The notes under the pieces: model-generated
Told to the model about the DNA's origin: nothing
Databases searched by the model: none
What the model saw: only the letters and a program-made list of their open reading frames with translations
Program-made: the position numbers and the translations under genes
Shown: positions 1,770-16,728 of the stretch, one piece after another
How the letters are laid out: each line of letters opens with the position of its first letter
Numbering within the stretch: position 1 is the stretch's first letter
Assembly (NCBI GenBank): GCA_016839765.1
Contig: JAEOTP010000055.1
Coordinates: forward strand, 1 to 16,923
DNA: 16,923 nucleotides
Direction of reading: 5' to 3'
Source of the DNA: Promethearchaeota archaeon
Lineage (GTDB): Archaea; Asgardarchaeota; Lokiarchaeia; Sigyniarchaeales; SOKP01

Positions 1770-2477
1770 ATGGATTCTTTAAACTTAGTATTTGATGAAA
1801 ACCTTATTCGCACGAAATTATTTCCTTGTGATTCACCCTCGAGAATAAAACTAAAAGATGAGTTCTTTACAAGTTCAGCTGTTCTGTTCTGCATTATTCC
1901 CTATAAAAATAAACCCTATGATTTAGTATTAATTCATCGCTCAAATCGTGGAAAGAGACATAGGGGGGAAATATCATTTCCGGGGGGTAAAATCGAACCT
2001 GATGATATCTCATTGAAAGACACCGCCTTAAGAGAAGCTGAAGAAGAAATTGGATTACCAAGAAAAAATGTAAAAATATTAGGTTGTTTAGACGATTTTC
2101 CGACTATGACTAAATTTGTAATTACTCCTTATGTTGCCATCATCAATAAGGATCAAAAATTAATAAAGGATGACATAGAAGTTCAGAAGATATTAAAAAT
2201 CCCAATAGATTTTTTTATAAGTAAGAAGAATTTTAGAGAACAAGCAGTGGATATCGATGGCAAGAAATTCCCTATCTTTTACTTTAACTATAAAGATGAT
2301 GAAAGTAAACAGACTTATACAGTTTGGGGAGCAACAGCCTATATGATATCTACTTTTATCGAAATTATTTATGGAATAACTATGTCAAACCTAGGTTTGA
2401 GACGATTTAAGTTAGAAAAAATAAAAGATCTTAAAGAATATATTAAATATAGGGACCAAATTACAAAAAAATTTTAA
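1770..2477 (+). CDS. Nudix hydrolase, CoA pyrophosphatase (NudL/NUDT7-like)
   Basis: CoA-Nudix motif LIHRSNRGKRHRGEISFPGG, Nudix box GGKIEPDD...ALREAEEEIGL, C-terminal VWGATA. Confidence 0.9.
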   Translation: MDSLNLVFDENLIRTKLFPCDSPSRIKLKDEFFTSSAVLFCIIPYKNKPYDLVLIHRSNRGKRHRGEISFPGGKIEPDDISLKDTALREAEEEIGLPRKNVKILGCLDDFPTMTKFVITPYVAIINKDQKLIKDDIEVQKILKIPIDFFISKKNFREQAVDIDGKKFPIFYFNYKDDESKQTYTVWGATAYMISTFIEIIYGITMSNLGLRRFKLEKIKDLKEYIKYRDQITKKF

Positions 2478-2512
2478 GATGGTATTGTAATCAATTAAAA
2501 ATGTAATGAATA

Positions 2513-3181
2513 ATGGATTTTATCTTTAATGAGAAAAAAATTGCAGAAAGCTTAAAACAATTAGATTCTCCTGAACGAATTTCAATGCATCATGAATACT
2601 TTGTAAATTCTGCAGTTATATTCTTAATAATTCCATATCAAGAAAGACCATATGAACTAGTCCTAATTCGAAGAACCAAACAAATAAATGATAAGCATTC
2701 TGGAGAGATGTCTTTTCCAGGGGGAAAATTTGATCCTGATGAAGATAAATCGTATTTAGATACCGGATTGAGGGAATTGAGAGAAGAATTAGGAATTCCA
2801 AGAAATAATGTGACCATATTGGGATGTATTGATGATCATCTCACCCCTAAAGGATTCATTATAACTGCTTTCGTAGCCTATATCAATAAAGACCAGAAAA
2901 TGATTAAACAAGTAGGAGAAGTCGAAGAGATCGTGAAAATTCCAATTACTTTTTTTGCTAATAAAAAGAATTTTAAAGAAAGAACTTATAAACTCAAGGA
3001 AGATTTAATTGGAGTAGGTAAATTCAAATATAATTCTCCAGATAATAAAAGATATGTAATATTTGGAGCCACATCTCACATCATTGTAAATTTTTTAGAT
3101 ACTATATACAATTTAGGTCTTATGACTCTGGGTTGCAGACGAATCACATGCGAAGATATTAAAGATAAAATCATTAATTAA
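2513..3181 (+). CDS. Nudix hydrolase, CoA pyrophosphatase (NudL/NUDT7-like), tandem paralog
   Basis: LIRRT...HSGEMSFPGG, GLRELREELGI, IFGATS; aligns along its length with the upstream gene. Confidence 0.9.
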   Translation: MDFIFNEKKIAESLKQLDSPERISMHHEYFVNSAVIFLIIPYQERPYELVLIRRTKQINDKHSGEMSFPGGKFDPDEDKSYLDTGLRELREELGIPRNNVTILGCIDDHLTPKGFIITAFVAYINKDQKMIKQVGEVEEIVKIPITFFANKKNFKERTYKLKEDLIGVGKFKYNSPDNKRYVIFGATSHIIVNFLDTIYNLGLMTLGCRRITCEDIKDKIIN

Positions 3182-4360: not shown

Positions 4361-4453
4361 GGCCCTTGACGGTTAGAGTGGTCTCTGACGCTGGGCTTCA
4401 AACCCAGTTATCCTGCGGAGGGATAGGGGTTCGATTCCCCTCGAGGGCCGCCA
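4361..4453 (+). tRNA. selC: tRNA-Sec (anticodon UCA)
   Basis: 9-bp acceptor GGCCCTTGA/TCGAGGGCC, G discriminator (4450), encoded CCA. 7-bp D-stem GTTAGAG/CTCTGAC with TGGT loop. 6-bp anticodon stem GCTGGG/CCCAGT with loop CT-TCA-AA (TCA at 4398-4400). Long variable arm TATCC...GGATA. 4-bp T-stem GGGG-TTCGATT-CCCC. This is the 9/4 fold of archaeal/eukaryotic tRNA-Sec. Confidence 0.97.
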
Positions 4454-4479
4454 ATCTTTATAAAAATAGCGTGATAAAT

Positions 4480-5847
4480 TTGATTGATTTTAATAAAATT
4501 ATTGATTATTTTAAAAGCACACCTATTCCTCAAAATATGTTGAATAGAGGGCAATTAGTTTTAAATGAGTTTTTAAATCCTATTAAAATTTTATTTGAGC
4601 AGAAAAATGTTCCTAAGGAACCTTGGAACGATGAGCAAATTGAGTTTTTCTTACAAACCCTCTCGAATATGGACACAGATAAAGATTTTAAGGCAGCAAG
4701 AGTAGGTGAAAGAGAAGCAAGAATAGCATCTAAAATACATTTGAAAACCTCAGCAGGATTCTGTCATGGTATAGGTAGAAGTGGTTTTCTGACGGCACCT
4801 CAACCTAAGGCTCCCGGTGGCTCTATCATGTATGAAATAACTAATTACTTAGCGAGAAATTTTCTTAAAAAATTTGGTTTACCTAATATAAAAAGTGCTA
4901 TAATTGTGCCATTATGTACAGGGATGTCTTTAGCTTTATGCATTGGGGCACTTAGACCAAATTGGAATAATAAAGACTTAAAAGATAAAAGAACTGTTCT
5001 TATTCCTCAAATTGATCATAAATCTCTTATTAAGGGATTGGAACTAATGGGTATAAAAAGAAAAACCATCGAAGGCAAGGTATTTGGTGATGCAGTAAGG
5101 ATTCCAGTTGAAGATATAAAATTAAGTATGGATAAAGATTGTTTTGCGGTTATTTCAGTAACAAGTTTTTTCCCTCCTCGCGAGCATGATAACATCAAAG
5201 AGATTAGTAAATTTGCTAAAGAAAACGATTTGGTTCATATTGTAATTAATGCATATGGGATTCAAAGTCGAGAATGGATGGATTTAATTCGTTCAGGAAT
5301 TGATGCAGGAAGAATAGATGCAATCATACAATCAACTGATAAAAATGTGCTTTCTCCAGTTGGCAGTGCTATTATTGCTTCCCCAGATAAGGAAATAATA
5401 ATTAAAATTAGTCAAGCGTATGCAGGACGCGCTTCCGCTACACCTGTAGTAAATTTTTTAATCTCTATGCTCGCTTTAGGTATTAAAGGATATCAAAGAT
5501 TAATGAATACTCAACAGAAAAACAGAAAATTATTAGAAGAAAAGATGAGTGAAGTTGCTAGAAAATTAAATGAGAGAATTTTAGATGTATTTAACCCAGT
5601 AGCCGTAGCAATGTCTTTAAAGAATTTGAAAAAAGAACATTTATCTACTTTAGGAGGAGCTTTATATAATTTAAGAGTCACGGGACCTAGGGTTTATAAT
5701 CCAGAAGAAAATGTTTTTGGAACGTGTTGTTCAAATTATTTAACTCCTTATATAGTAATGAATGCCGCAATAGGCGCAACCTCCGAAGATATAGTCTTAG
5801 CAGTTGAAAGATTTGAAAAGGCATACGCTCAAATTATTCAGAAGTAA
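4480..5847 (+). CDS. spcS: O-phosphoseryl-tRNA(Sec) selenium transferase (SepSecS)
   Basis: Motifs GEREAR, HGIGRSG...QPKAPG, PLP-lysine QSTDKN, YAGRAS, AAIG. Start moved from the track's 4366 (inside tRNA-Sec) to TTG 4480, which follows a GTGAT SD-like element; in-frame GTG 4471 is an alternative. Confidence 0.93.
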   Translation: MIDFNKIIDYFKSTPIPQNMLNRGQLVLNEFLNPIKILFEQKNVPKEPWNDEQIEFFLQTLSNMDTDKDFKAARVGEREARIASKIHLKTSAGFCHGIGRSGFLTAPQPKAPGGSIMYEITNYLARNFLKKFGLPNIKSAIIVPLCTGMSLALCIGALRPNWNNKDLKDKRTVLIPQIDHKSLIKGLELMGIKRKTIEGKVFGDAVRIPVEDIKLSMDKDCFAVISVTSFFPPREHDNIKEISKFAKENDLVHIVINAYGIQSREWMDLIRSGIDAGRIDAIIQSTDKNVLSPVGSAIIASPDKEIIIKISQAYAGRASATPVVNFLISMLALGIKGYQRLMNTQQKNRKLLEEKMSEVARKLNERILDVFNPVAVAMSLKNLKKEHLSTLGGALYNLRVTGPRVYNPEENVFGTCCSNYLTPYIVMNAAIGATSEDIVLAVERFEKAYAQIIQK

Positions 5848-6622: not shown

Positions 6623-6685
6623 AGATTAATATCTAATAATTCAATAGTATCATTTAAACTATTTCTATTTTAATAACAAAAAGAG

Positions 6686-6837
6686 TGGTCCAGGGGGGAT
6701 TTATTCTTTAGAGAAGATTTTTCTCTTCTATTGAACCCCCGATCTCGGGTTTTTACGTATACAGACAACTTTTTTATTATTGTGCGTCTATAGGGCCTTA
6801 TAAGACCCGCGCTTTAACCAAGCTGAGCTACTGGACC
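6686..6837 (-). tRNA. tRNA-Ile (anticodon UAU) with two introns
   Basis: Minus strand: acceptor GGTCCAG/CTGGACC plus A73, D arm GCTCAGCTTGGTTAAAGC, anticodon stem CGGGT/ACCCG with loop CT-TAT-AA (anticodon 6800-6802), T arm GGGGG-TTCAAAT-CCCCC. Intron 1 is 47 nt in the anticodon loop (6751-6797 if at 38/39, 6752-6798 if at 37/38; same mature RNA). Intron 2 is 30 nt in the T-loop (6701-6730, 58/59). Confidence 0.9.
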
Positions 6838-7038: not shown

Positions 7039-7434
7039 ATGCTTACAGATTTATTAAACTCCATTTATAAAAGAATTGCTCAATTAGGTCAAGCAATTCA
7101 AGGGCTAAAAACTTCTTTGGATGGATTAAATCAGAACATTGAAGAAAAAATAATAAATTTAAATGAAAAATTAAAATCATTTTCAGAAGAAATCGACATG
7201 ACTCAGACGAAACATATTGATGTTTTGAAAGAAATTGGAGAAAGTACTAAAGATGAATTGAAAAGAATTCAGGAAGGATTAGGATTAGATGCTTTAAACA
7301 CTTTAATTAAAAAACTTAATGAGTTTGAAAAATTATCTGGAGAGATATTAAATCAAGATACTGTTAATTTATTGCTATCTGAAGCTATAAGTTCTGTAAA
7401 GAATTTAAAGCAGAAACCTTCCAAAAAATTATAA
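7039..7434 (+). CDS. Small coiled-coil protein A
   Basis: 131 aa, heptad pattern over most of its length, no TM segment. The true start may be the in-frame ATA at 7030. Confidence 0.8.
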   Translation: MLTDLLNSIYKRIAQLGQAIQGLKTSLDGLNQNIEEKIINLNEKLKSFSEEIDMTQTKHIDVLKEIGESTKDELKRIQEGLGLDALNTLIKKLNEFEKLSGEILNQDTVNLLLSEAISSVKNLKQKPSKKL

Positions 7435-7445
7435 AAGGTGAAAAT

Positions 7446-7865
7446 ATGACAGAAAATTTATTGAATGAGATGATAAATAAAATAAATCAAATAACTTCTT
7501 CATTAGATGGTACTATTGCTCAGATTAATCAAATGAGTACAGCAATTCAAACCATGTCTCAGAAATTCTCAGAAGAAACGATCTCTGTCAATGAAAACAT
7601 TCGACTAATTGTCGAAGTACTAAAACAATTTAGAATGAAATCTAGTGAAAGTATTCAGGAATTAGCTGATACTTTTAATGCAAAATTAAAAGAATTATTT
7701 GATAAAAAATCTATAGAAGCTATATCAGAAGAAGAAAAGAAAGCCATAGATACAATTAGGAAAGCAGCTAAAACAGTTTCTAATAACCTCTATTACGCAC
7801 AACTTTTAAATATTATTCAATCAATTAGAGAAGAAACGAATAGAATAATGAGCTGTAAAGAATAA
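7446..7865 (+). CDS. Small coiled-coil protein B
   Basis: 139 aa, helical/heptad, GGTGA SD, 11 bp after the upstream stop. N-terminus resembles protein A (LLN..I..I.Q.....G). Confidence 0.82.
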   Translation: MTENLLNEMINKINQITSSLDGTIAQINQMSTAIQTMSQKFSEETISVNENIRLIVEVLKQFRMKSSESIQELADTFNAKLKELFDKKSIEAISEEEKKAIDTIRKAAKTVSNNLYYAQLLNIIQSIREETNRIMSCKE

Positions 7866-7939
7866 TAAATTCTTTAAATTATTATAATTACCAATTATTA
7901 TATTTTAGAAATATTTAATTTTAAGGAGTTTAAACATCT

Positions 7940-8842
7940 ATGCCAATTGGCAGTTTTGTGATATTATTACCATTAGATGCAGATTACAAAATTTCTGGAT
8001 ATTATTTTAAAGAAGGTAAATCAAATTTTGAGGTAACAAGCGATCTCTTTCTTAGATTAAATCTAGATCATACAAAAAACGAATATAATCTGTTAAAACT
8101 GAAAGATTTCCAAATTTTTTCATATCTTTATAGATTTAAAGGAAAACTAGCACGAAAGGCTTCAGGGGCAATAATTGGATTATTGTTGAAGGAAAATGAT
8201 AAGCCAGAGAAGTTTCGTTCATCCCTTAAATTGGGTGCTGAAGCAATAGAAATAATTGGTTTTAATTTAATAAACATGCCTCAGGATGATTTTAAATTAA
8301 TATTAAAAGATATTTACTTTGAGCATTTCGAGCCATTAATTGACATTTTAAAACCTGAAGCGCTAAAGGTAAGTATTATGTCAATCGCAAAATTTATGTT
8401 AAGTGGAGAAAAGAACGAAAGAAGAATTGCCACAGAACTTTTAAAAAAAGTAGAAAATGGTGAACATGAAAAAATATCTGAATATTATATTTCAGCTGAA
8501 AATGCCTTAAAATCATTAGATTACGATAAAGCTACGAAATTTTATAACAAAGCAGCCGAAGTTGCAGAAGAACTTTATATTATTGATATTGCTGAATCTT
8601 TAAATGAAAAAGCAAGTTTTTCAGGGCAAGTACCTGATTTATCAAAACAACGAGATAAAGCTGTACAATATGCAAGAACTTACCTTCGTAATGAGAATTT
8701 TCATTCAGCATATATTTCATACAAGAAAGCAAGTGAATTATCTAAAAAGTTAGTAGAATTTGATAAAGAAGAAGAATATCGATTAAAGGCTAAAGCTTTA
8801 GAAGAATTTTACAAAGTAGATGAAGAATACAAAAAAAGATAA
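7940..8842 (+). CDS. Putative longin/uDENN-like N-domain + TPR-like helical repeat protein
   Basis: The N-terminal ~110 aa show a beta-beta-alpha-beta-beta-beta-alpha pattern (MPIGSFVIL...ISGYY...FQIFSY...AIIGLLL...PEKFRSSL). Two C-terminal repeats: ALKSLDYDKATKFYNKAAEVAEEL and YLRNENFHSAYISYKKASELSKKL. Fold call by eye. Confidence 0.6.
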   Translation: MPIGSFVILLPLDADYKISGYYFKEGKSNFEVTSDLFLRLNLDHTKNEYNLLKLKDFQIFSYLYRFKGKLARKASGAIIGLLLKENDKPEKFRSSLKLGAEAIEIIGFNLINMPQDDFKLILKDIYFEHFEPLIDILKPEALKVSIMSIAKFMLSGEKNERRIATELLKKVENGEHEKISEYYISAENALKSLDYDKATKFYNKAAEVAEELYIIDIAESLNEKASFSGQVPDLSKQRDKAVQYARTYLRNENFHSAYISYKKASELSKKLVEFDKEEEYRLKAKALEEFYKVDEEYKKR

Positions 8843-9759: not shown

Positions 9760-10911
9760 ATGGAAAAAGAAATTTTAGCTTGTATTGAGAATAAAAACAT
9801 AAAGTTTCTTCATTCGGGTCAAATTTCAAAATATACCTTTCCTATGGAAAGACATGAAGCACATCAGAAAAAAATTAGCCATATTATTATTAGGTTTTTT
9901 ATAGTTACTATTTCACCAGATAATAAGATTTTATTTCTTGTTCAAAAAAGAAATAAAAAAAAGAAACAATTTCCAGAATATTTTACTGATTCAGCATCTG
10001 GACATGTACTCTATAAAAAAAATTTAAATTTAAATAATATTAAAGAAAATGCGAAAAGAGAATTAGAAGAAGAATTTGGAATTTCCCCAAAATCAGTTAA
10101 AAGAATGAAATTTTATGATTTAAACGCCGAATCAAACAATACAACTACAGAGATAGCTTATACATTTTTAGGTTTAGTCCAATATAACACCGAATTAAAA
10201 CCTAACCCAGAAGAATTAGAAATTAAAGAAAGTAGATTTTATACCAAAAAAGAATTGATAAATTTACTAGAAAATGAACAATCAATAGATTATTCCAAAA
10301 AAATATGGGAAAAAATTGCTGAATTGGACATTTTCAAATATTTTGGATTAAATAATGATTTAAAAAGGAATGAGAAAACTAAAAAAGAAATTGCATTATT
10401 TATGGGAAGATTTCAGCCATTACATCATGGTCATATATATATACTTAATTATTTATTAAAAAATTTTAAATTAATAAAAATAGGGATTGGAAGCTCTCAG
10501 CTTTCTAAAACAAAATCGGATCCTTTCACAAGTAAAGAAAGAATTCAATTTATTCAAGCCGCTTTAGAAAAAAGAGGAATTTCATCTGGAAAATATAAAA
10601 TTTACGAAATTCCTGACATTTTTAACGCAAAAAAATGGGTTAATCATGTAGTATCAATCGTAGGAAATTTTGATGCAATTTTTTCTAATAGTGAATGGGT
10701 AAGACAACTTTTTCAAAATCAAGGATACAGACTTGGAAGAAAGTTAATTATATTTAAGAAGAAATATAATGGCTCTAACATTAGAAAACTAATTAATAAG
10801 AAAAATTCTAATTGGAAACGTTTAGTTCCAAAAGAAATTTTTCAATTAATGATTGAATTTGGCGGAATTCAAAGAATTAAACAGTTATATAATACACAGA
10901 AATCATTATGA
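9760..10911 (+). CDS. nadM: Fusion: N-terminal Nudix domain + nicotinamide-nucleotide adenylyltransferase (NadM)
   Basis: N-half: VQKR...K..FP.YFTDSASGHV...AKRELEEEFGI (IDI/YfcD-like Nudix). C-half: FMGRFQPLHHGH, GIGSSQ, DPFTSKER, W..HV, NGSNIR, W..LVP (archaeal NMNAT). Confidence 0.88.
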   Translation: MEKEILACIENKNIKFLHSGQISKYTFPMERHEAHQKKISHIIIRFFIVTISPDNKILFLVQKRNKKKKQFPEYFTDSASGHVLYKKNLNLNNIKENAKRELEEEFGISPKSVKRMKFYDLNAESNNTTTEIAYTFLGLVQYNTELKPNPEELEIKESRFYTKKELINLLENEQSIDYSKKIWEKIAELDIFKYFGLNNDLKRNEKTKKEIALFMGRFQPLHHGHIYILNYLLKNFKLIKIGIGSSQLSKTKSDPFTSKERIQFIQAALEKRGISSGKYKIYEIPDIFNAKKWVNHVVSIVGNFDAIFSNSEWVRQLFQNQGYRLGRKLIIFKKKYNGSNIRKLINKKNSNWKRLVPKEIFQLMIEFGGIQRIKQLYNTQKSL

Positions 10912-11987
10912 ATAAATTAAAATATTTAGAAATTGATGGAGCTTTTGGAGAGGGTGGGGGTTCAATTTTACGCTTGAGTGCTGGATTTTCAGTATTGTTC
11001 AACCAACCAGTAAGAATTAAAAATATTAGAGCTAATCGTCCAAAACCTGGTTTAAGGTTACAACATCTTATTGGTCTACAAACTTTGGCCAACTTAACAG
11101 GGAGTAAATTGAAAGCTTTGGATGGTGAATGTAAAATTGGTACTCGAGACCTTATATTTAAGCCAAATTTAAATATTCAAGACAAAATAAAAATTAATGT
11201 TAACACAGCAGCTAGTATTGGTCTATTACTTCAGCCAATTCAAATTGCTAGCTTAAATTTTATGAAAACTGCACAAATCGAAATTATTATTAACGGAGGC
11301 GGCACATTTGGTAAATGGGCGCCAAGTTTAAATTATTTAATGAATGTAACATACCAGATTTTCAAAAAAAGTGGATTAAGTATATCAATTGATATAAACA
11401 AATATGGTTTTTATCCAAAAGGCGGTGCGTCAACTAAATGTACAATTTTTCCACCAAAAGTTATGTTAAAACCATTAAACCTAAAGGAATTAGGGACTAT
11501 TGATTTAATTCAAGGCGAAATTATATTATCAAATCAATTAAAGCAAAGTGGTAGAAATATTGGAGAGAGAATTAAAAAGTCAATAAATTTAGAATTAAAA
11601 AATCATCTAAAAATTGAAACAGATATAAAGTATGAATATGTTGAAGCAACTAGTACTGGTGTGGGTCTTTGTCTCTGGGCTCGTTCAGATACAGGAGCCA
11701 TTATATCCTCGGGAACTATTTTAGGGGAGAGAAATATTACTTCAGAAAAATTAGGAAAAATTGCTTCAAAAGAAATTTTAAAATATATCAAGAATGATAT
11801 ACCTGTTGATAATCATTTAAGTGACCAATTAATACCTCTAATAGCTTATAATAAAGAACCATCATCTCTTAGGGTGCTTGAAATTACTAACCATACTAAA
11901 ACTAATTTAGAATTAGTGAACCTCTTTACTCAGAGAAGTTATGAAATTATTAAGGAAAAAAATTCTTTTATAATCGAATTAAATTGA
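10908..11987 (+). CDS. rtcA: RNA 3'-terminal phosphate cyclase
   Basis: IDGAFGEGGGSILR, IRANRPKPGLRLQHL, GGT...WAP, GFYPKGG, catalytic-His motif VDNHLSDQLI, ITNHTKTN. ATGA overlap with the upstream stop. Confidence 0.95.
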   Translation: MNKLKYLEIDGAFGEGGGSILRLSAGFSVLFNQPVRIKNIRANRPKPGLRLQHLIGLQTLANLTGSKLKALDGECKIGTRDLIFKPNLNIQDKIKINVNTAASIGLLLQPIQIASLNFMKTAQIEIIINGGGTFGKWAPSLNYLMNVTYQIFKKSGLSISIDINKYGFYPKGGASTKCTIFPPKVMLKPLNLKELGTIDLIQGEIILSNQLKQSGRNIGERIKKSINLELKNHLKIETDIKYEYVEATSTGVGLCLWARSDTGAIISSGTILGERNITSEKLGKIASKEILKYIKNDIPVDNHLSDQLIPLIAYNKEPSSLRVLEITNHTKTNLELVNLFTQRSYEIIKEKNSFIIELN

Positions 11988-16613: not shown

Positions 16614-16728
16614 GCAAGCGTAGCGTAGCCTGGTAACGCGCTGGCTTGGAGAGGAAAAAAGAACCAATTTCTGCCCCCATTTAGCCAGTGTGGGCAACCA
16701 CTCGGGGGTTCAAATCCCTCCGCTTGCG
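16614..16728 (+). tRNA. tRNA-Ser (anticodon GGA) with a 31-nt intron at 37/38
   Basis: Acceptor GCAAGCG/CGCTTGC plus G73, anticodon stem CTGGC/GCCAG with GGA at 16648-16650, intron 16652-16682, long variable arm GTGG-GCAA-CCAC, T arm GGGGG-TTCAAAT-CCCTC, followed by a T-tract. Confidence 0.92.

Follow-up and report, generated by a model that had tools for sequence, protein, structure and literature searches.

A two-intron tRNA-Ile(UAU) gene in an Asgard archaeon without TiaS, and a possible self-directed modification of its anticodon

The window examined here, a stretch of 16,923 nucleotides from a Promethearchaeota archaeon, carries on its minus strand a tRNA gene that in all likelihood provides an organism devoid of the TiaS/agmatidine route with its AUA-reading isoleucine tRNA. 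In the usual archaeal arrangement, AUA is read by tRNA-Ile2(CAU) after TiaS has installed agmatidine on it. The tRNA described here bears the anticodon UAU, and its gene is interrupted beside the anticodon by an intron that holds a conserved ACA. Our best explanation for the observations as a whole, to which we assign a probability of roughly 0.55, is that the precursor of this AUA-reading tRNA-Ile directs its own modification.

The gene runs from G1 at position 6837 to A73 at 6686, with the anticodon TAT at 6802-6800, and it matches the Rfam tRNA model RF00005 at 42.1 bits (E 3.8e-6) with two inserts. Removal of 47 and 30 nucleotides leaves a 75-nucleotide cloverleaf with a short variable loop, A73 and a C4-G69 pair. 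The cloverleaf, the Rfam match and the scoring of BHB splice helices confirm the first-pass annotation of a tRNA-Ile(UAU) with an A73 discriminator. ARAGORN misses the gene because of its two introns, and with relaxed settings it returns mostly false calls. The gene is divided as follows.

6686..6837, minus strand: pre-tRNA-Ile(UAU) gene, 152 nt, 75 nt when spliced, CCA not encoded (Rfam RF00005, splice-boundary scoring)
6798..6837, minus strand: 5' exon, positions 1-38, with the acceptor 5' strand including C4, the D arm, and the 5' strand and loop of the anticodon arm
6800..6802, minus strand: anticodon U34-A35-U36, identical in 39 genomes of the class
6751..6797, minus strand: intron 1, 47 nt, at position 38/39; its BHB helix joins 33-36 with 6756-6753 and is complete (4/4) only at 38/39
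6793..6797, minus strand: intron 1 nt 1-5, predicted by the minimum-energy fold to pair with exon G28-C32 in an alternative structure, comparable to a guide RNA's 3' pocket strand
6785..6792, minus strand: intron 1 nt 6-13, a predicted lower stem strand whose partner is intron nt 31-38 (6767-6760)
6781..6783, minus strand: conserved ACA, intron 1 nt 15-17, in 19/19 copies from family f1
6731..6750, minus strand: middle exon, positions 39-58, joined to the 3' exon in a relative without intron 2 (G020)
6701..6730, minus strand: intron 2, 30 nt, in the T loop at position 58/59, with a complete (4/4) helix only there
6686..6700, minus strand: 3' exon, positions 59-73, with G69 and the discriminator A73
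6676..6684, minus strand: T-rich run 3' of the gene, a candidate terminator by its sequence, with similar runs in relatives

Every possible splice position was scored for the 4-bp central helix of a BHB, flanked by a 3-nt bulge at each splice site, and the helix is complete, albeit with relaxed flanks, at 38/39 and 58/59. The anticodon loop had been described as CU-UAU-AA whichever intron boundary is used. This is true of boundaries from 36/37 to 38/39, but boundaries from 33/34 to 35/36 would yield UAA. We rejected the UAA product because those boundaries form only 0-1 of the four helix pairs. Relatives in family f1 splice at 38/39 as well, with substitutions that preserve the helix, and members of other Asgard families splice at 37/38. 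The UAU anticodon therefore stands, given that the full helix exists only at 38/39 and that the relatives agree. From the D arm through the anticodon the sequence is nearly invariant within family f1, and the genome encodes two splicing endonuclease subunits. Intron 2 is optional among relatives, being absent from three of them (G020, G236 and G192). It resembles T-loop introns in other tRNA genes of the same genome (L021, G000:C25:33877-33929) and of relatives (L006, L012), which suggests that this intron may have been copied between tRNA genes.

Several other features of the window merit a brief description. A tRNA-Sec gene (4361-4449) stands directly ahead of a SepSecS gene (4366-5847) whose Pfam match begins at residue 102; the true start of SepSecS is later than listed because the listed TTG start falls inside the tRNA. 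A further tRNA gene (16614-16728) contains an intron, has a long variable arm and was read as Ser(GGA), and ARAGORN with introns enabled calls it Pro(TGG). A 300-aa ORF with weak TPR matches and the two small coiled-coil ORFs that precede it occupy 7039-8842, a fusion of Nudix and cytidylyltransferase-like domains (9760-10911) overlaps an RNA 3'-phosphate cyclase gene (10908-11987), and a tandem pair of Nudix-type paralogs lies at 1770-3181. A sigma-70 promoter scan of the window was uninformative, the host being archaeal.

The proposal that TiaS has been replaced or supplemented can be narrowed to replacement. The host genome (3.32 Mb, 29.7% GC, 96% complete) yielded no TiaS to a family search or to tblastn with six Asgard TiaS proteins, and among 400 genomes of the phylum the enzyme is present in 0/161 of the class, in 0/34 of five other families and in 184/205 of the rest. 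A survey of the class with one pattern that catches both TAT and CAT anticodons recovered the UAU tRNA in 39 genomes and an elongator tRNA-Met in 43. In fourteen genomes the pattern catches just the UAU tRNA and elongator Met; three of these genomes are closed (G032, G038, G171). No archaeal tRNA-Ile2(CAU) was found across the class, the lone Ile2-like CAU gene being bacterial-looking and on a 3.9-kb contig. Families that have TiaS present the opposite pattern: 27/50 genomes show Ile2(CAU), and none a true UAU tRNA. Ile2(CAU) is likewise missing from the host assembly, the tRNA set of which must be incomplete since elongator Met and Ile(GAU) genes are also absent.

The codon itself is in heavy use. 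ATA had been noted as common in the window, and indeed supplies 176 of its 524 isoleucine codons; genome-wide it makes up 3.55% of codons in long ORFs, about twice the share of ATG. At 145 conserved columns of IleRS and RpoB across the class, ATA aligns with Ile 89 times and with Met once, and on this basis we rejected reassignment of AUA to methionine. Because TiaS is absent, the class shows no archaeal Ile2(CAU), AUA means isoleucine and ATA is this frequent, the organism very probably depends on the tRNA-Ile(UAU) as its sole and essential reader of AUA.

UAU tRNAs of other kinds were also encountered in the survey. Those in G007, G325 and G336 are intronless and bacterial- or viral-looking, and one of two copies in G035 is DPANN-like (L054, L058, L059 and L038); these odd copies are probably binning contaminants or mobile elements. 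Such tRNAs are frequent in Patescibacteria, where they are intronless, and in DPANN, where most have a 37/38 intron (L060-L179).

Four more Asgard groups share the UAU tRNA, and there it is encoded directly behind a gene for IleRS-A that lacks INS, a block of ~60-80 aa (nomenclature of PMC13752280). In these other TiaS-less families the tRNA is hidden by several introns and sits 35-82 nt behind ileS. The pair occurs in G303 (Odinarchaeum yellowstonii), G300, G298, G042 and G044 (read as Atabeyarchaeia), G140, G149, G307, G168 and G169, and in 0/13 TiaS-bearing genomes; the same pair is found in the clade that holds the IleRS of Naiadarchaeales/Undinarchaeota (L355, L356). These synthetases, like that of the host, lack the INS block; the host enzyme has 15 residues there, versus 75-85 in INS-bearing enzymes. 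The INS-less enzymes form one clade (100/99) that is sister to the Undinarchaeota-containing clade (100/99), and a tree that unites them with the remaining Asgard IleRS-A is rejected (p-AU 1e-13). The host synthetase falls inside the IleRS-A-like clade among neighbors labeled Lokiarchaeota or Promethearchaeota, on which basis we read the host as a member of Lokiarchaeia, the class surveyed above. The class labels that NCBI gives to these MAG proteins are not reliable (family f19 is labeled Hodarchaeota).

The host's INS-less ileS gene lies on another contig (C26), unlinked from the tRNA, and three Lokiarchaeia (G198, G033, G170) have the UAU tRNA but yielded only an INS-bearing IleRS2, so the INS-less synthetase is not required. 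Atabeyarchaeia are without TiaS and Freyarchaeia, their sister group in published work (PMC11291895), have Ile2(CAU); either transfer of the cassette or differential loss is therefore needed. An RpoB tree alone does not reject a single clade of TiaS-less lineages (p-AU 0.12), and it identifies no root or donor. We also observed that many f1 relatives (e.g., L234, G225:C4) have a second, divergent IleRS of ~955-965 aa with an HYGH motif, which was not found in the host, and that in two relatives (L236 in G019, and G219:C31) ileS contains one in-frame TAG, attributable to error, recoding or a mini-intron.

The intron beside the anticodon has a peculiar and conserved design. An ACA begins at intron nucleotide 15-16 in 36/40 Asgard copies, compared with 0/20 introns of CAU tRNAs (a curated control of Met and Ile2 introns, adopted in place of an automatic scan whose hits were mostly false positives) and 6/368 background positions. 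By group, the motif is present in 19/19 copies of family f1, 6/8 of f2, 9/9 of the Odin-type, f19, Atabeya and f28 copies together, 2/2 of f7 once a nested intron is removed by hand, and 0/2 of f4. UAU introns of archaea outside Asgard have it in only 4/26 cases.

Folding of the precursor places this ACA in a structural context. In the minimum-energy fold (-47.9 kcal/mol, 3.9 lower than the BHB fold at -44.0), the intron is predicted to fold back on the exon such that U34-A35-U36-A37 form an unpaired loop, U33 pairs with A38, and 15 nt separate A38 from the ACA. The pairing between intron nucleotides 1-5 and G28-C32 forms 4-5 of its 5 pairs in 12/13 copies of family f1, and an internal intron stem of 7-10 bp is present in all ACA-bearing f1 and f2 copies. 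Outside these two families the introns are short and the stem is built differently: the 8 nt preceding the ACA pair with the 3' strand of the D arm in 98/104 cells, versus a shuffle mean of 84.9 and with 0/100,000 shuffles reaching 98, although this value overstates the case because the rows were chosen for having an ACA and include kin, two of them also having been offset by hand. Covariation of this stem across lineages includes two-sided changes at positions 20, 21, 22 and 23. In f1 and f2 the intron is longer and itself supplies the strand that takes the place of the D-arm partner, and the distance of the ACA from the pairing partner of C32 is still 13-14 nt. Family f1 additionally has its splice site shifted by one base relative to the other families, with the ACA and its spacing kept. 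That both motif and spacing have persisted while the architecture changed twice is the strongest indication that the element may be under selection.

These features resemble those of box H/ACA guide RNAs. [quoted passage not shown] In the predicted structure the ACA directly follows the lower stem, the 3' pocket strand is 15 nt, and all five pairs with G28-C32 form. However, the fold has no upper stem, K-turn or 5' pocket strand, and the element sits within the pre-tRNA rather than in a separate trans RNA. Because two defining features are lacking, we do not class the intron as an H/ACA guide. Guide geometry is also weak in family f2 and the Odin-type copies, where the upper stem has just 2-3 bp. 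A C/D guide was considered and rejected, intron 1 having neither a C nor a D box.

We propose that the precursor takes two folds. In the first, the helix between intron nucleotides 1-5 and G28-C32 would stack on the intron's own stem, leaving the UAUA loop open and producing in cis what amounts to half a box H/ACA guide-target complex. [quoted passage not shown] The precursor would then refold into the BHB form, from which the two-subunit endonuclease would excise both introns, and IleRS would charge the product with isoleucine. Pseudouridine at 34 may improve charging and favor A over G, and may also protect U34 from Elp3, likewise encoded, whose C5 modification causes that base to read AUG. 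The need for such a modification follows from two published observations: haloarchaeal U34 mutants acquire cnm5U and read AUG (PMC3895270), and in IleRS with ARD3 a conserved Arg mediates binding of both U34 and pseudouridine-34, with the latter predicted to bind better (PMC11685878). We put the chance of intron-directed pseudouridylation by Cbf5 at about even, and that of a truly self-guiding intron at even or a shade below. An intron-dependent modification of U34 had been a guess of the first-pass annotation, and the predicted structure now lends it support. A still more inclusive reading, in which the cis half-H/ACA intron yields Psi-A-Psi, traveled between DPANN and Asgard archaea together with an ileS-tRNA cassette and took the place of TiaS in about half of the sampled Asgard genomes, is tentative and falls somewhat short of even odds.

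Two objections concern the identity of the gene, and we consider both highly improbable. An assembly error, a pseudogene or an anticodon spliced to UAA could be suspected, particularly as the Atabeya-2 copy is marked 'possible pseudo' in a published supplement, but the tRNA recurs in 39 independent assemblies with exons conserved while introns vary, and independent assemblies 98-99% identical to this one also read TAT, which at the assembly level removes an earlier concern that the true anticodon is CAT. A BHB helix restricted to 38/39 and a short variable loop unlike that of tRNA-Leu dispose of the UAA product. The prospect that the tRNA carries methionine, AUA having been reassigned as in many mitochondria, is more remote still. 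A UAU anticodon can read both AUA and AUG, and elongator Met was not found in the host assembly; nevertheless, ATA in the host genome aligns with Ile (10), Val (8) and Leu (5) and never with Met, so that charging with Met, which had been raised as a way for the annotation to fail, is contradicted. Moreover, 43 relatives have a separate elongator Met(CAU), and in other lineages the gene lies behind ileS.

The remaining rivals accept the tRNA and dispute what its intron does; each is unlikely, and neither seems to us better than the other. Perhaps U34 is left unmodified and the ribosome simply rejects U:G, as in Mycoplasma mobile, with the ACA fold serving as an Elp3 shield, a timer of splicing or part of an excised intron circle. 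That organism and a B. subtilis mutant provide precedent (PMC3575796, PMC3895270), and AUA is evidently readable without the ACA device because intronless archaeal UAU tRNAs exist (L114) and the motif is scarce in non-Asgard introns; both f4 copies and 2/8 f2 copies dispense with it as well. This explanation leaves unaccounted for a fixed distance between ACA and anticodon across deep lineages in which the stem partner has changed. Alternatively, the same fold-back and the same dependence on the intron could serve another enzyme, whether TruA/Pus1-like, TruD/Pus7, Pus10 or a modifier that makes something other than pseudouridine. The constant ACA and a 14-16 nt spacing are instead hallmarks of Cbf5 binding (PMC11077068). 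The host encodes TruA, TruD and Pus10, with a single, ordinary gene of the TruA family. Yeast Pus1 acts on an intron-bearing precursor, a precedent for such an enzyme here, and Pus10 recognizes the shape of the acceptor-T arm with a CCA-like tail, to which the predicted fold may be likened, as an acceptor-T minihelix with U34 in place of U55. Yet no extra TruA/Pus1 copy was found in the host or other TiaS-less genomes, and the ACA-bearing family f19 has no TruA match.

Among known systems, eukaryotic tRNA-Ile is modified by the protein-only enzyme Pus1 in a manner that depends on its intron, and in Euryarchaeota the intron of pre-tRNA-Trp is a C/D guide that directs modification of its own wobble base. 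The latter employs C/D boxes for 2'-O-methylation, whereas the intron here has no such boxes. Eukaryotic tRNA-Ile(Psi-A-Psi) (PMC11685878) also has a UAU gene with an anticodon-loop intron and the same predicted end product, but it has a 37/38 intron and a companion IAU tRNA, in contrast to the 38/39 intron here. The description of this tRNA as eukaryote-like thus holds for function and not for ancestry: probable Heimdall-type Asgard families keep TiaS and Ile2(CAU), and the likelier enzyme is Cbf5 rather than Pus1. The anticodon is a parallel to the eukaryotic one, with no evidence that either descends from the other. Separate trans guides, namely sR115 of Sulfolobus islandicus (PMC11077068) and sR-h45 of Haloferax (PMC7075261), share with the proposed element an ACA after the lower stem, a target U 14-16 nt away, pairing on the 5' side of the target and an unpaired UVUN, and sR115 modifies an anticodon U across an intron (PMC11077068). 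Those RNAs differ in having an upper stem, a K-turn and two pocket strands, whereas here everything lies in one molecule and half of the pocket is missing. In Mycoplasma mobile (PMC3575796) the C34-modifying enzyme was similarly lost and a UAU tRNA kept, but that bacterial tRNA has no intron, its U34 is unmodified, and its bacterial-type IleRS is adapted.

Exchange of TiaS for a UAU tRNA is not new to archaea (PMC3239211, PMC6000648, PMC3575796). UAU tRNAs without TiaS have been published for Nanoarchaeum equitans, Ca. Korarchaeum cryptofilum and ARMAN-2/-4/-5 (PMC6000648, PMC3239211, PMC3895270), and our survey finds the same in many DPANN genomes. The published cases share with the Asgard gene the UAU anticodon, the lack of TiaS and Ile2(CAU), and, in ARMAN-2 and Korarchaeum, an intron beside the anticodon. 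What differs is that the trait here belongs to a whole class with large genomes and to four other Asgard groups, with a 38/39 intron, a conserved ACA fold-back and a link to INS-less IleRS-A. The literature searched, which included few subscription journals, contained no report of TiaS loss or a UAU tRNA in Asgard archaea, of the ileS-tRNA pair or of tRNA introns with an ACA element, and a 2026 preprint on Asgard tRNA introns mentions neither UAU, TiaS nor ACA.

About half of the 400 Asgard genomes are without TiaS, and the AUA reader of such genomes, which standard tRNA finders overlook or which is labeled a pseudogene, can now be annotated correctly. How UAU-bearing archaea avoid reading AUG has been a question since the Nanoarchaeum and Korarchaeum genomes. 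If our proposal is true, these archaea would have kept a tRNA intron for its function, would carry out a self-guided pseudouridylation that is absent from the literature searched, and would have arrived at the eukaryotic anticodon by an independent route.
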